NCBI GenBank assembly: GCA_964291235.2
Contig: OZ219816.1
Span: forward strand, 1,984,001-2,048,000
Length of the DNA stretch: 64,000 nucleotides
Direction of reading: 5' to 3'
Origin: Vicinamibacteria bacterium
GTDB taxonomy: Bacteria > Acidobacteriota > Vicinamibacteria > Marinacidobacterales > Marinacidobacteraceae
Shown here: one piece after another, positions 56,386 through 61,796 of the stretch
Layout of the letters: each line of letters opens with the position of its first letter
Numbering within the stretch: the first letter of the stretch is position 1
The notes under the pieces: generated by a model
The model's input: only the letters and a program-made list of their open reading frames with translations
The model's database searches: none
What the model was told of the DNA's origin: nothing
Translations under genes and position numbers: made by a program

Positions 56386-56868
56386 ATGACCCATCGCCAG
56401 ATCCCGCTTCTGTTCGCTCTGACGTTACCCCTGGCCTGCGCCACCGAAACCGCCCCCCAGCAGGAGACTCCCGAGGAGGCTGCCGGGCTGGAGCGGCACT
56501 ACATCAACCCCCGCTCGGCGGCGGATCCCGATGTACCGCCCTTCAGCGGCGGCGTGATGGTGGGCGACACCTTCTACGTCGCGGGAACCATCGGGCTGCT
56601 CCCCGATCAGACGGTGCCCGAGACCGCCCAGGAAGAGGCTCGCCTCGTCATGACCAGTGTGCAAAACACCCTGGAGGCGGCCGGACTGACCATGGACGAC
56701 CTGGTATTCGTGCAGGTCTATTCGTCGGACGTCGCGGACTACGACGCCTTCAACGAGGTGTACCGCACGTTCTTCACCCAGGAATACCCGGCCCGCGCCT
56801 ACCTGGGCTCGGGCACGCTGCTCTTCGGGGCGCGGTTCGAGGTGCTGGGGTTCGCGGCGAAGCGCTAG
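56386..56868 (+). CDS. RidA/YjgF family protein with lipoprotein signal
   Basis: PPFS, FNEVY..FF, PAR (catalytic Arg) and FEV motifs; N-terminal LPLAC lipobox. Confidence 0.85.
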   Translation: MTHRQIPLLFALTLPLACATETAPQQETPEEAAGLERHYINPRSAADPDVPPFSGGVMVGDTFYVAGTIGLLPDQTVPETAQEEARLVMTSVQNTLEAAGLTMDDLVFVQVYSSDVADYDAFNEVYRTFFTQEYPARAYLGSGTLLFGARFEVLGFAAKR

Positions 56869-56984
56869 TTCGGATTTCTCATACTTCCGCCGTAGAGATC
56901 GATGCAGGATGGTGCTCCTCTTCGGCGGGAACCCAACTAGCCTTGATGTCGGACAGGCACGGGAGCCCCCTATAGGATCGGCGA

Positions 56985-57175
56985 CGTCCTGCGGGAGCCG
57001 AGATTCGGCTGCCGTTGTATCAACTCAGGTTGGCCAATCCGCCGGGAGTACTAACTGAGCCCCGGTGCCGCGAGCACCTACGGTGGACACGTACCCCGAC
57101 GGATGGCCGTGATGGACGACCAGTGGAGAGTCGGTTCCAATCGAGAACCAGTATAGGGGCTGGACAGCATCGCGG
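56985..57175 (+). ncRNA. Predicted IS110 bridge RNA (5' hairpin, target-binding loop, donor-binding loop)
   Basis: Two stem/internal-loop/hairpin modules (57032-57108 and 57111-57171) whose loop strands match the target flanks and the element ends; boundaries approximate. Confidence 0.8.
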
Positions 57176-57219
57176 CGCGGCGGACCTCCGGCGGAGCGCA
57201 AGCTCGAAGGAAGACAGCG

Positions 57220-58482
57220 ATGAAGCAGAAGCTGAGCTGGTTCGTGGGCATCGACTGGGGCGAGCAGAGCCACCAGGTGTGCCTGTGCGACAGGCGCGGG
57301 AAGGTGCGCGGGGAGCGCGCCTTCGCGCACAAGGGATCGGGGCTGGCGGCCCTGGTGAAGTGGCTTAGGAAGCAGACGGGTGTGCCGCCGGCGCGGGTGG
57401 CGGTCGCGATCGAGCGGCCGGATGGGGCGGTGGTGGCGACGCTGCTGGAGGCGGGGTTTGCGGTCTATGCGGTGAACCCGCGGCAGACGAGCCACCTGCG
57501 GAAGTTCATCTCCCACCCGGGGCACAAGAACGACCGGCGGGACGCCCGGATGTTGGCCACCACGCTGCAGGCGAGCCTGGCGGGGTTCCGCCTGCTGGTG
57601 CCGCTACCGGGGTTGGTGCTGCGGCTGCGGGAGCGGACCCGGACGGCGGACCGTCTGCTCCAGGAGCAGGTCCGGCAGTGCCTGCGGATCCGGAGTGCGC
57701 TGGTGGACTACTTCCCGCAACTGCTGGAGGTGGCCGGCGAGGCGAAGAACCTGGGGGCTCCGTTCTTCCGGGAGTTGTGGGCTCGGGCTTCTACGCCGGC
57801 GAAAGCGCGGAAGGTGTGGTTGTCCACGTTGGAGAAGCTGGTCCGGCGGTATGGAGTGACCCGGATCAGCGCCGCGCGGATCCAGGCGTTGTTCCGGGAG
57901 CCGGCGCTGGTGATGGCGCCGGGGGCGACCGAGGCGGCGGTGGAGACGATCCGCACGGCGCTCGCACAGTTGGAGGTTGTGCGGGCGGAACTCGTCCGGG
58001 CGGAGGGCCAGATGACCCAACTGCTGGACGAGTTCTCGGAGACGGCGGAGGCCGGGGGTGGTTCGGATGCCACGGGCCCGGATCTGGTGAGCGCGTTGCG
58101 CTCGCGCCCGGGCGCGGGGGACAAGGCGCTGGCCCGGTTGTTCGCCTGGGGCTTCGAGGCGCTCTCGGAGGGGAACTACCGCCGTCTGCGCGCCTACTGT
58201 GGGGTAGCCCCGATCGAGGACCAGTCCGGCAAGTCCGCACAGCTCCGGCAACGGCGCGCCGTTCCCAGTTCGCTGCAACACGCCACCTACATCCTGGCGC
58301 GGGGGGTCGTCCGCTGGGACGAGAAGGTGGCGGCCTACAACCGGAAGTTGAAGGCGGAAGGGAAGCACACGGCCCGGCGCCACCGGAGCATCGCGGATCA
58401 ACAACTCCGGGTGCTGTGCGCGATGGCCCGGAACCGAACCCTCTTTGATCCCAACTTCTCCCAGAAGCGGAGGGCCGCCTAA
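57220..58482 (+). CDS. IS110-family transposase/recombinase
   Basis: RuvC-like DEDD residues (GIDWG, AIERP, KNDRRDA), coiled-coil region, and a C-terminal domain with GVAPIEDQSGK (catalytic Ser). Confidence 0.95.
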   Translation: MKQKLSWFVGIDWGEQSHQVCLCDRRGKVRGERAFAHKGSGLAALVKWLRKQTGVPPARVAVAIERPDGAVVATLLEAGFAVYAVNPRQTSHLRKFISHPGHKNDRRDARMLATTLQASLAGFRLLVPLPGLVLRLRERTRTADRLLQEQVRQCLRIRSALVDYFPQLLEVAGEAKNLGAPFFRELWARASTPAKARKVWLSTLEKLVRRYGVTRISAARIQALFREPALVMAPGATEAAVETIRTALAQLEVVRAELVRAEGQMTQLLDEFSETAEAGGGSDATGPDLVSALRSRPGAGDKALARLFAWGFEALSEGNYRRLRAYCGVAPIEDQSGKSAQLRQRRAVPSSLQHATYILARGVVRWDEKVAAYNRKLKAEGKHTARRHRSIADQQLRVLCAMARNRTLFDPNFSQKRRAA

Positions 58483-58487
58483 CGCTC

Positions 58488-58493
58488 TTGCGT
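58488..58493 (+). promoter_or_regulatory. -35 hexamer of the IS110 circle-junction promoter
   Basis: TTGCGT lies exactly 17 nt from TAGGAT (56973-56978) once the right end is joined to the left end through the core. Confidence 0.7.
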
Positions 58494-58857
58494 TCTCGTG
58501 GAAAGTCCACCAGGAGAACTGGGCCGGCCTCCAGGCCGGCACAGCCCGCCGTAGGCGGGCGGCGGGACGGACCTGGCTGGCCGGGATGGCTCCCTCTTTC
58601 GGAGGGACCCCGTGAGCGCGAGTGGCGAGGAACCGCCCGCGGCGCTCCGCGCCGCTGTGCCGACCTGGAGGTCGGCGTTCCCGTGCCTACCCGCTGTCCG
58701 TGCGGTCGGGGTCAGCGCCTGACGCGTTCTCCCGACATTGTCAACAGGTTGGCGTGATCCGCGCGGCACGTGGGGCCATGAGTATGAGAAACCCGGGCTA
58801 AGACACCCGGGGGCTCGCACCGCCCGGCGGGACCAGCCGGGGAGCCCTTCCCCGCGC

Positions 58858-60432
58858 CTATCCCTCCTCCCAAAGACGCGGATAGAAGGGCTGGAATTTG
58901 AATTGGGAGTCGGGGTCGGCCAGTCCGCCGCCGGAGGCGCGGCGGACGAACTCCGCCGGTTCCAGAGTCGCGGAGCGCACCGCGCCGAGACGGCGGCTCG
59001 CGCGCTTCGCCCGGTACTCCAGATTCTGCCCGGCAAGCAGCTCGTCGAGTCGTTCCGCCAGCCCCGGCGGAAGCGCACCCGACCCGTTTTCCCGCCGAAC
59101 CACGGCGAGTTGGTAGCAGGGAAGCTCCGCTCCGCCTGGATCCCGCGGGAAGATCGCCAGCCAGAATTCCTCGCGCAAGCCGGGATGCTCGGTGTCCAGA
59201 ACCTCGAGAGCACATCCGACCTGTTCGGCGGTGATCTTTTCGCCCGTGAAAGACCAGCCAAGGCCGCGTCGGCCGACAAAGCGCAGATCCGGCAGGCCGG
59301 CGATGAATCTCTCGACCCGAAAGAGATCCCCCGTTGCGTAGCGCCGGAGGCCGAACCGGTGACTCACCACCATCTCGTACGTCGTATCCGGGTTCAGATC
59401 GCGGGCGCCCGACAGGGAAGCCAGCGGTCCCGCCGCGGACGACTCCCGGAACTCGTGAAGGACTCCGGGGGCGGCTGGCAGAAACGCCGTATCCCCCCGG
59501 CGGTAGTCCGGAATGGTCTCGATCGTTTCGGTGGACATCGAAAACATCGGCTCCCGCCGATAGCGCGGCAGGGGAAGACGCCGGTCCAGCCGTTCGAGAA
59601 ACGGCCGCACACTGCCTCCCGTCCAGCACACGTAGGTCGTGAAAGCCGGATTCCAGAGCGCCGCCGGGAGCGGCGACGAGCTTTCCGACACCCGCCGCAG
59701 GCGGGCTGCCGAGCCCCGCGAAGCGAGCCTCCCGAGAATCCGCCGGGCGAACGGAGATACCCCTTTCCCGTCGCGCACGACGTCCCGGACGAGCCTCCGG
59801 GCTGCCTTCCAGTCCGCCTCCAATTCCTCAAGAAAACCGCTCAGCGTGGACGGGTTCGTGGCGTAGAGGATCCCGGGATTCGAGAGCGTGAGCACCAGCA
59901 AGCGCAGCGCGGTGGCCCCGTACCGGTCCTTCAGATCGAGGAAAGCCGGATCCGACTGAGCGCGGTAGGGAGCCTGGAGCAACACGAACCAGGGCGGTGC
60001 GCGGCGCTCGCGGACGAGCAGCCAGCTCAGCGAGCGATCCGGCTCAAGCGCCCCGAAGACGTAAAGGCTGGGACGCCGGATCCGGCGCTCCGCAATGAGG
60101 CGGAGCATCCCGTCCACGAATACGGCGCGGGTCGCTCGCACCCGCTCCGGCGAATACGGGATGCGTTTCGGCTCACCCGCGGTGCCGGAGGTGAGTGCTA
60201 CCGGGGTCCCGCTGCGGTCATCCACCGCCGGCAGCGCAGGAGTGACCGGGGTGGCGGAAGTGATTCCCAGGCGCCTCGGCAGACGTCGTTCGCGATACGG
60301 ATGGAGCCGCAGCCGCGCCCGGTGGCGCAAAACGGCGGCGAGGCCCGCCAGGTGCAGGAGGGCGCCAATGGCCGAGCGACCGAGGTCATTCAGGAAACCT
60401 CGGAAATCGCGCCTCAATGAGGGCGCACCCAA
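58858..60432 (-). CDS. GH3-family acyl-adenylate/amido synthetase
   Basis: LTSGTAGEPKRIPY (GH3 motif I), MSTE, GLRRYATGD and FTGEKIT motifs. Confidence 0.85.
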   Translation of the reverse strand: MGAPSLRRDFRGFLNDLGRSAIGALLHLAGLAAVLRHRARLRLHPYRERRLPRRLGITSATPVTPALPAVDDRSGTPVALTSGTAGEPKRIPYSPERVRATRAVFVDGMLRLIAERRIRRPSLYVFGALEPDRSLSWLLVRERRAPPWFVLLQAPYRAQSDPAFLDLKDRYGATALRLLVLTLSNPGILYATNPSTLSGFLEELEADWKAARRLVRDVVRDGKGVSPFARRILGRLASRGSAARLRRVSESSSPLPAALWNPAFTTYVCWTGGSVRPFLERLDRRLPLPRYRREPMFSMSTETIETIPDYRRGDTAFLPAAPGVLHEFRESSAAGPLASLSGARDLNPDTTYEMVVSHRFGLRRYATGDLFRVERFIAGLPDLRFVGRRGLGWSFTGEKITAEQVGCALEVLDTEHPGLREEFWLAIFPRDPGGAELPCYQLAVVRRENGSGALPPGLAERLDELLAGQNLEYRAKRASRRLGAVRSATLEPAEFVRRASGGGLADPDSQFKFQPFYPRLWEEG

Positions 60433-61796
60433 GGCTCTCCCGAGCGCAGGAACGGCGGATCGGCCAAGGGCGCCACGAAGGCGTTCGCGATGAAGTCGAT
60501 GTCTTCCTCGCGGAGGAGGGCGGGATCCCAGGTGATCGTGACCACGGTCTGGTCGCTCTGAGACATGGCTGCGAAGTAGAGCGGATGCTGGCGGTGCAGG
60601 CAGCCGATCACCTCCATACCCGACACGTCGTTCAGCACCGGGTCGTCATCTCCCGGCCAGTGCTCCAGATGGGTGAAGCCGGCGCTCCCGAAGTCCGCCC
60701 ACGGCCGGTAGAGCCACCGGCGGAGGAACGGCGCCGCGACCGGAAAGAGCGCGGGAGGCACCGGCAGCGCGGGAATGGCCCATTCCCCCTGGCGTTTTTT
60801 CCGGTACACCAGCCGGCGCACCGAGCGGCAGCGCTCGAGAAACATCCGGCTCCTGACGGCGGACAACGGTTCCCGGTGAATCCGGATCCGCGAGGCGCCG
60901 TTTCCGAACCCGCGAAGCCACTCCTGCCGGGTGTTCACCGGCACCCACAAACCGATCCGATCCGCGGCCGCTCCACGATGCTCGTTCCAGGCCGCCAGCG
61001 CATCGAGCGCCGCCGCGAGCAGGCAGTCGTTCCAGCGGAATCCCCCGACCGTCTGCGCCAGGGAGGTAAGCGGCTCGCGCGGCACCTCGAAGGTGCGCCA
61101 GCAGCGGGCCGCCGACGGCGGCCCCGGACGCGTCGCGACGGGAGTGGAGGACCGGGCGCCGGGATTCCGGCGAGCCCCCTTGGGGGCTTCGTGGAGTTTG
61201 AGCGATCCGCGTTGCGGGCGGGGAAGCATCGTGTCGAGGCCGCGCGCCATCCGTAGTTGCCGCTGCACGAAGAGCAGCGTCCCGACGAGGTCGGACGCGG
61301 CATGGTGTACCTGGGTGACGAGGCTCCAGGAAGAGGGATCCCCGATTCCGAGCAACATCTGCCGCAGCGGAGGCCCCGCGGCGAGCGGGAACGGGGCCTC
61401 CAGAAACTCCTGGATCCGGGCAATGCGCTCTCCCTCCGGGAAGACCCGGATCGCGAGAGCGGGAGGCGCCGCGGGCTGCGGTTCCCACCTCGGTATGTCG
61501 AACGGCGGCCGGTACAGCCGGCTCGACGAGACCGGGTACACCAGGCGCGCGCCCTGAGCTCCGCGGTAGAGCGGCTCGAAGTCCGTCAGCGCCTGGGACG
61601 ACTGGCCGAGATCGAGTACGAACGCGAAGTCCAGTGGGCGTTCGGTCGAGTCCGCCAGCAGACACGCCAGGTCCGGCGTCGCGAGCGGGATGCGTCCGGT
61701 CAGGCGGCTTCCGACGGCGTTTCGCGCCAGATGTCGCGCCGGGGGATCCAGCGCCGATCGGGATCGCGCTCGACAAGCTGGTGGAGCTCGATCCAC
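60414..61796 (-). CDS. Condensation-domain-like / CoA-dependent acyltransferase
   Basis: VHHAASDLVG (HHxxxD), NDCLLAA and VPVNTR...FGN motifs. Start uncertain; the functional N-terminus is probably near 61700. Confidence 0.7.
   Translation of the reverse strand: MDRAPPACRARSRSALDPPARHLARNAVGSRLTGRIPLATPDLACLLADSTERPLDFAFVLDLGQSSQALTDFEPLYRGAQGARLVYPVSSSRLYRPPFDIPRWEPQPAAPPALAIRVFPEGERIARIQEFLEAPFPLAAGPPLRQMLLGIGDPSSWSLVTQVHHAASDLVGTLLFVQRQLRMARGLDTMLPRPQRGSLKLHEAPKGARRNPGARSSTPVATRPGPPSAARCWRTFEVPREPLTSLAQTVGGFRWNDCLLAAALDALAAWNEHRGAAADRIGLWVPVNTRQEWLRGFGNGASRIRIHREPLSAVRSRMFLERCRSVRRLVYRKKRQGEWAIPALPVPPALFPVAAPFLRRWLYRPWADFGSAGFTHLEHWPGDDDPVLNDVSGMEVIGCLHRQHPLYFAAMSQSDQTVVTITWDPALLREEDIDFIANAFVAPLADPPFLRSGEPWVRPH

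Follow-up and report, generated by a model that had tools for sequence, protein, structure and literature searches.

An IS110-group insertion sequence with a putative CC-core bridge RNA in a Vicinamibacteria genome

Bridge RNAs are predicted in 85.7% of the catalogued IS110 insertion sequences (PMC11208160). For IS621, the same paper describes a nine-base left target guide (LTG), a four-base right target guide (RTG), an 11-bp target and a CT core. In IS621, left guides base-pair to the bottom DNA strand and right guides to the top one, and a -35 box in the right end belongs to a promoter that is complete only in the circular form (PMC11208160). The handshake-guide concept is set out in PMC11208158, and the ends of ISPpu9 and ISPpu10 circles are described as joined at a fixed dinucleotide (PMC12288879). 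Here, we analysed a 64,000-nucleotide stretch of contig OZ219816.1 from a Vicinamibacteria bacterium (hereafter the window, whose positions are used throughout unless another contig or locus is named) that contains an IS110 element. Window positions 56971-58508 very probably represent an IS110-group insertion sequence that is complete and was recently active, the left non-coding end of which would encode a bridge RNA of approximately 190 nt.

The insertion sequence and its candidate bridge RNA

The host genome has a size of 3.45 Mb in two contigs (C1 and C2) and a G+C content of 68%. Five copies of the element with 97-100% identity were identified in this genome, one of them in the window. The element body (56971-58506; all features described here are on the forward strand) comprises a left end (LE) of 249 nt (56971-57219), the recombinase gene and a right end (RE) of 24 nt (58483-58506). 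In all five copies, the left junction reads GAGCCCCC followed directly by TATAGG. The right junction reads ...GTGGAAAGT-CC, i.e., GGAAAGT-CC, followed by ACCGGGAGAACTGG, and the right target bases are ACCG in every copy except the window copy, which has ACCA. CC is present at both junctions of all five copies (56969-56970 and 58507-58508 in the window), all within one 12-bp site, indicating site-specific insertion. The outer flanks of the five copies are divergent, showing that these are separate insertions, and a related genome contains six copies with differing flanks. The recombinase frame is open (420 aa) in all five copies, with protein identities of 100% for two and 99% for two. A sequence-only reading of this DNA had placed the element at 56961-58530, which is too wide; the inserted DNA spans 56971-58508 or, equivalently, 56969-58506. 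Its expectation that other copies would have the same ends and the predicted flanks was borne out by the four others.

Two candidate boundary features were rejected. A right end reaching 58522 was considered, as BLAST flank matches resume at 58523 and the copies share ACCGGGAGAACTGG; this string is a motif of the repeat that also occurs free of the insertion sequence. A 5-bp direct repeat, GGGAG, was considered as a target duplication and is absent from relatives (L033). None of the 25 longest inverted repeats, out of 50, links the two termini of the element.

The sequence strings on which the sequence-only reading was built were all found where it had placed them, and minimum-energy folds yield both of its proposed modules with their stems. 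The target-binding module (57032-57108) has an outer stem (57032-57051/57091-57108) and an internal loop with the hairpin GGTGC-cgcga-GCACC (57064-57078). The LTG, GAGCCCC (57057-57063), has the sense sequence of the left target (LT) and the first core C, giving a 7-nt match to its own flank (56963-56969). The RTG, CGGUGG (57081-57086), is antisense to the core plus the right target (RT), CCACCG. The adjacent handshake guide AC (57087-57088) is complementary to the terminal GT of the right end (58505-58506) and not to the CC of the target.

The donor-binding module (57111-57171) consists of stems 57111-57114/57168-57171 and 57120-57123/57160-57163 and the hairpin GGTTC-caatcga-GAACC (57133-57149). 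Its left donor guide (LDG), GUGGAGAGUC (57123-57132), has the sense sequence of the right end and the first core C. The left donor (LD), GTGGAAAGT (58498-58506), consists of the last bases of the right end, is identical in the five copies and matches the LDG. The single G/A difference previously pointed out between the LDG, GTGGAGAGTC, and the right end, GTGGAAAGTC (58498-58507), is present and would correspond to one wobble pair between an RNA G and a DNA T. In relatives, this position is A/A or G/G in guide and end. The right donor guide (RDG), UAUAGG (57152-57157), is antisense to the core plus the left end, CCTATA, and the homologous position reads UACAGG where the left end is TGTA. The donor-loop handshake guide GG (57158-57159) pairs with CC, the last two bases of the LT (56967-56968). 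Both modules have a 5' guide in sense orientation to the left half and a 3' guide antisense to the core and the right half, consistent with the LTG/RTG and LDG/RDG architecture of IS621 that had been proposed. A 5' stem-loop of the putative bridge RNA (56991-57015) was also recognised in the consensus fold of four relatives, with 17 pairs, of which 6 show compensatory changes.

The target GAGCCC-CC-ACCG sits in a very abundant repeat resembling repetitive extragenic palindromic (REP) elements. The LT, GAGCCC (56963-56968), is the same in all five copies and equals bases 1-6 of the LTG (57057-57063). The ACCA of the window (ACCG in other copies), together with the remaining motif GGAGAACTGG (58509-58522), belongs to the repeat and not to the insertion sequence. 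The host genome contains 21 unoccupied perfect 12-mer sites, GAGCCCCCACCG. The motif CCCCCACCGGGAGAACTGG often occurs in inverted pairs and is found free of the insertion sequence with exactly five C 72 times in the host genome. Counts of GCCCCCACCGGGAGAAC in three congeners are 22, 512 and 983, with none for the reversed control, so that copy number differs approximately 40-fold.

Two hexamers suggest a promoter that is completed in the circle. A -35-like hexamer, TTGCGT (58488-58493), lies in the right end at a fixed distance from the core, and a -10-like hexamer, TAGGAT (56973-56978), would supply the LE half, 17 nt away once RE and LE are joined. No sigma-70-like promoter was found in the integrated element. 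Among 22 distinct homologue junctions, TAnnnT occurs at the homologous position in 20 and TTG at the fixed core distance in 19, with a perfect TTGACA in three. The whole arrangement of TTG..., 17 nt and TAnnnT across the junction is seen in 18 of the 22. A promoter of this kind, present in the circle and nowhere else, is probably required for expression.

Based on these features, we propose a mechanism in which the target loop would read the 12-bp GAGCCC-CC-ACCG in the REP-like repeat. The donor loop would read the joined ends of the circle, ...GTGGAAAGT-CC-TATA..., via the LDG and the RDG. After a first exchange of strands, the partner DNA may be paired by the two-base handshake guides AC and GG. 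The 420-aa DEDD/Ser recombinase would swap strands at the CC core, and such an exchange would result in conservative insertion, leaving CC on both sides. Expression would be driven by the circle-only promoter, with its -35 hexamer in the right end and its -10 hexamer in the left end. Transcription of the RNA, recombinase binding, circle formation, the chemistry of strand exchange and reprogrammability are inferred by homology with IS621.

Conservation of the RNA, its guides and the recombinase

A scan of species genomes retrieved 10 loci, in Vicinamibacteria metagenome-assembled genomes, and a search of 401 Vicinamibacteria genomes gave matches in 42, including the genome of the window. A metagenome contig scan with a three-protein alignment returned 105 pattern hits, with no relative among them. 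A covariance model (R1) was built from four close relatives. Of the 34 sources (33 loci and the window itself), 33 have an R1 match upstream of the recombinase at E ≤ 1e-5; only the degenerate locus L039 lacks one. An open reading frame (ORF) of at least 380 aa begins within 160 nt downstream of the RNA in 29 distinct cases. One locus, L066 (from the unpublished genome G244), forms one row in the RNA-model, guide, promoter and pair counts and is not part of alignment A5 or the structure.

The two modules are conserved in structure. In the R1 alignment, 88.3% of cells pair, compared with 29-47% when the partners are slid, and compensatory changes occur in 28 of 35 pairs. Helices 1-3, which form the target module, are 81-98% paired over 34 distinct rows, with a compensatory change in 16 of 22 pairs. 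For helices 4-6 of the donor module, the corresponding values are 74-99% and 12 of 13 pairs. The variable columns of the RNA alignment are the guide columns.

To compare guides with flanks, left ends were located from the RDG and right ends from the LDG, and the 34 rows were collapsed to 24 distinct guide sets. Two sets have no detectable left end (n = 22 for the LTG) and five have no detectable right end (n = 19 for the RTG). In 16 of 22 sets, the LTG and its own flank agree over a stretch of at least 7 contiguous nt, compared with 12 of 460 cross pairs, all of the latter between near-identical guides. For the RTG, a match of at least 6 nt to the right flank occurs in 13 of 19 sets when guide and flank come from the same element, and in none of 320 cross pairs. 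Without L066, these values are 15/21 and 12/418 for the LTG and 12/18 and 0/284 for the RTG. The guide sets cover 16 different left hexamers and 15 different right tetramers, and the LDG and RDG match the element ends in the window and in relatives. The guides of the homologues therefore covary with their flanks, one of the points on which the sequence-only reading had staked its interpretation. In 17 of 19 sets, both bases of the target-loop handshake guide pair with the donor end, and in none of 21 do both pair with their own target. For the donor-loop handshake guide, both bases pair in just 8 of 22 sets.

The gene at 57220-58482 (stop included) encodes an IS110-family DEDD/Ser recombinase of 420 aa. 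The protein matches PF01548 (E = 4e-28, residues 9-166) and PF02371 (E = 1.4e-8, residues 292-373). It also scores 141.6 bits against NCBIfam NF033542, 'IS110 family RNA-guided transposase', for which the cut-off is 140. In a phmmer search against PDB chains, only ISCro4 (E = 1.9e-7) and IS621 (E = 2.4e-6) were retrieved. In the phmmer alignment, D12, D105, D108 and S336 lie opposite the IS621 catalytic residues D11, D102, D105 and S241 (chain numbering +2). The catalytic Glu is placed two residues off by phmmer; E65 is invariant in the alignment of 23 clade proteins, as are D105, D108 and S336, while D12 is at least 90% conserved. Of 29 picked ORFs, 27-28 retain each of the five catalytic positions; at least two of the picks (L037 and L045) are visibly mis-called and do not align.

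The AlphaFold2 model of the recombinase has a predicted local distance difference test score (pLDDT) of 86.9 and a predicted template modelling score (pTM) of 0.78. The top 10 Foldseek matches in PDB are all IS621 or ISCro4 chains, with E-values of 3.4e-11 to 1.6e-9, target-normalised template modelling (TM) scores of 0.72-0.76 and 18-20% identity. The best match is the IS621 recombinase (E = 3.4e-11, TM 0.73). Extra short helices (approximately residues 166-235) are modelled between the long helices 131-164 and 236-273 and may be an insert in the coiled-coil part. Domains, residues and fold agree with the long-type 420-aa recombinase with intact DEDD and Ser residues that had been read from the ORF.

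At L047, two bridge-RNA matches lie approximately 1.75 kb apart on the minus strand (2791-2936 and 1037-1181) and represent adjacent related elements with slightly different target loops. Decayed copies were seen at congener loci L038, L039, L040 and L044, where recombinase matches begin only at residue 124-175. One of these copies carries a TAG, L039 has no RNA, and the genome concerned is the richest in target motifs (983). In the window, a weak RNA-model match at 61520-61640 (forward strand, 14.1 bits, E = 0.38) has no recombinase gene beside it and probably arose by chance.

Core register and rival explanations

The CC core read from the sequence alone is retained, but the two statements made of it were one base apart, and the left core copy is 56969-56970. 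All 16 unoccupied sites of the form GAG, C-run and ACCGGGAGAAC have five C and none has four, which fixes the register. As an occupied site has five C on its left side and two on its right, the target reads GAGCCC-CC-ACCG and the joined ends would be ...AAAGT-CC-TATAGG.... The unoccupied sites thus favour the circle-junction sequence that had been predicted. In this register, the LTG (whose match ends at 56969) and the LDG cover only the first core C, while the RTG and RDG cover both with GG.

The core contacts differ within the clade. In most members, the LTG has CC, covering both core bases, and the LDG has UU facing the CC core, so that only wobble pairs would form there. Donor and target core contacts are systematically unequal in the donor-loop columns of alignment A3 (L046-L068). 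Across the clade, the core-reading bases lie at a distance from the hairpin that varies by plus or minus one base, which may reflect either tolerance in C-runs or a real relaxation. All clade members have GG at the core-reading positions of the RTG and RDG, and the CC core is therefore a clade-wide property.

Several observations weigh against a guided, active element of this kind. The window copy has one mismatch to its own RTG (A at 58512), giving the CCACCA noted earlier; since the four other copies have CCACCG at the right junction, this mismatch is private to the window copy. The fold energies are unremarkable (z-scores of -1.41 and -1.24; 19 and 18 out of 200 shuffled sequences fold equally well), and no Rfam family matches 56500-59000 at E ≤ 1. 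The LTG match is shorter than 6 nt in 4 of 22 sets (L060, L069, L048 and L055), and the RTG match in 6 of 19 (the window, L047, L062, L063, L055 and L067). For L048 and L069, a U opposite the core C terminates the exact match, and for L055 and L063 the automatic end-finding is doubtful. The pair counts rest on an alignment fitted to the model, which favours the model, and, as the homologues are related to one another, their counts do not represent independent events. The NF033542 score exceeds its cut-off by just 1.6 bits. No RNA run is listed among the public sequencing runs that contain the stretch. The Logan contigs of four DNA runs (X1, X3, X5 and X6) contain no RE-to-LE junction, although contigs cannot show rare forms. 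Finally, the target contains five C and the LTG only four, and the RNA base that follows is the G opening the inner hairpin, which cannot pair with the bottom-strand G; the LDG, too, ends in one C with a G after it, so that the left guides reach only the first core base. In IS621, by contrast, both core bases take part in all four guide pairings. Pairing of two core bases in all guides is a detail of IS621 and not a criterion of the family.

An alternative is the same element and mechanism in another register, with a four-C target GAGCC-CC-ACCG, a left end beginning one base earlier (CTATAGG), a junction AAAGT-CC-CTATAGG and an LTG covering both core bases as in IS621. The LTG indeed has exactly four C before the hairpin, and the LTG covers both core bases in most clade members (e.g., L047, L065, L054 and L068). 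The RDG region UAUAGGGG pairs either way, and the occupied junctions are the same under both models. We nevertheless consider this register unlikely. Besides the five C in 16 of 16 GAG-type unoccupied sites, the whole motif occurs 72 times with five C and 11 times with four. The RDG and handshake columns align with the UACAGG plus GA of relatives having an unambiguous left end, and four related lineages (L042, L037, L044 and L061) match best when only the first core base is covered. It is most unlikely that the guide-like strings of a true IS110 element are REP-like leftovers in its left end and that the target is chosen by the protein alone or by the repeat hairpin. The target repeat is present in hundreds of copies, which makes short matches likelier than for a random site, and target structure is described as adding specificity for ISPpu10 (2026 preprint, 10.64898/2026.03.19.712850). 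Mononucleotide shuffling of 56985-57219, repeated 20,000 times, produced the individual matches 847, 8028 (RTG), 127 and 475 times, the RTG count taken alone favouring the leftover reading, but never all four together. Moreover, the guide columns shift with the flanks (16 LT hexamers, 15 RT tetramers) at fixed positions of a conserved RNA, and the donor guides match the element's own ends and not the repeat sequence.

An element that has all the parts but is immobile in its own genome, its copies being fixed relics or spread by repeat duplication, is also quite unlikely. The missing circle junction in the contigs would fit such a state, as would the lack of any locus-specific empty site in the Logan contigs of the same four runs, the RTG mismatch of the window copy and a congener (G161) with truncated or stop-containing copies (matches from residue 124 or 175, one with TAG). 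Five copies that are 97-100% identical, with open 420-aa frames and proteins identical at 100% (two) and 99% (two), argue for recent activity instead, and so do their differing outer flanks and the six copies with different flanks in the related genome. Contig joints 56921>58523, 56997>58507 and 56902>58679 were rejected as traces of excision or circles, since their short sides of 20-30 letters fit other repeat copies. The segment C2:1533214-1533375 (locus L006/L024) was rejected as an excision footprint, as it has G for A relative to the predicted empty site and is better explained as an unoccupied variant. In this unit, the first right-target base is G (GAGCCCCC-G-CCGGGAG), which may be either a natural variant or a site shielded from insertion by the mismatch. 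In the public DNA-run contigs, the element assembles as a separate contig (56966-58526). These contigs have T, A and G at 57069, 57191 and 58512, where the window has C, G and A, which makes the window copy a minority variant; 58512 is the base that mismatches the RTG.

The surroundings of the element are rich in repeats. An L-PSP-family gene and a GH3-family gene flank the insertion, both with their 3' ends towards it. The CCCCCACCGGGAGAACTGG motif is located at 58509-58545 and, for example, at C2:282880, C2:451800 and C1:932146 of genome G000, and CACCGGGAGAAC occurs 115 times in the host genome. A repeat unit of approximately 145 nt surrounds the insertion (56900-56964 and 58523-58600) and is itself present in more than 100 repeats in the host genome. 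These units sometimes form tandem arrays with a period of approximately 120 nt (e.g., C1:931885-932028, C2:339261-339793 and C1:1118492-1118897). In 15 of 16 listed units, the junction reads GGGAACGCCGG and contains no target motif of the insertion sequence; the target-bearing form looks like a variant.

Comparison with described IS110 elements

Every sequence-level feature that defines the IS110 family and the IS110 group was found in the window element, which is IS621-like as far as can be read from its sequence. Its functional parts can all be read in this way, including target, donor, four guides, handshake bases, putative split promoter and catalytic residues, and can be checked against five copies, 21 unoccupied sites and approximately 20 divergent relatives. 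Searches of full-text literature returned no paper linking IS110 with a 'CC core' and none linking IS110 and bridge RNA with Acidobacteriota; the supplementary tables of large IS110 surveys may list the clade. Cores other than CT have already been published for natural elements, e.g., AG in ISPpu9 (PMC12288879).

We tentatively suggest, as a possible but rather doubtful generalisation, a clade of long (approximately 410-435 aa) bridge recombinases across the class Vicinamibacteria. It would have a natural CC core and a weak or missing contact of the left guides with the bottom-strand core (donor-loop U:G wobbles in most members, one core base paired in the window lineage). If this is a true mechanistic relaxation, the core rule of the clade would differ from that of IS621 and ISCro4, and the clade would provide CC-core, possibly orthogonal, programmable recombinases. 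For practical use, the window element offers one further candidate, together with natural guide variants for tests of the core rule and of orthogonality.

Members of the IS1111 group and the seekRNA elements belong to the same recombinase family and also choose their targets by RNA guidance (PMC11187229, PMC11208160). In IS1111 members, it is the right end that is long and carries the RNA, and subterminal inverted repeats of 7-17 bp are present, whereas the window element has a long left end and, among its 25 longest listed inverted repeats, none that joins its ends. ISPpu9 and ISPpu10 of Pseudomonas putida resemble it in that a genome contains several identical copies, which are inserted at a fixed dinucleotide within REP-type repeats (PMC12288879). 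ISPpu9 differs in its AG core and in its RNA gene, ssr9, which sits downstream of the transposase (PMC12288879), while the putative RNA of the window element lies upstream and its core is CC.

The closest described systems are IS621 and ISCro4/IS622. The window element shares with them the fold, the DEDD RuvC-like domain and the Tnp domain with a catalytic Ser, and a predicted RNA encoded in a long left end. This RNA would likewise have two loops. In each, an inner hairpin separates a 5' sense guide from a 3' antisense guide, and the two guides overlap at a 2-nt core. Handshake guides, a putative split circle promoter and insertion into repetitive extragenic elements are further common features. 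IS621 has been characterised experimentally, whereas the element described here is known from sequence alone. The IS621 recombinase shares approximately 19% identity with that of the window in the structural alignment (phmmer E = 2e-6), and the window protein, with 420 aa, is approximately 90 aa longer than the IS621 and ISCro4 chains of 328 and 341 aa. The core is CT in IS621 and CC in the window, where the natural target is of 6+2+4 bp. The window element leaves the picture of how bridge-RNA elements work unchanged, and it widens the documented range of this mechanism to Acidobacteriota, to a CC core and to recombinases approximately 19% identical to the solved ones.

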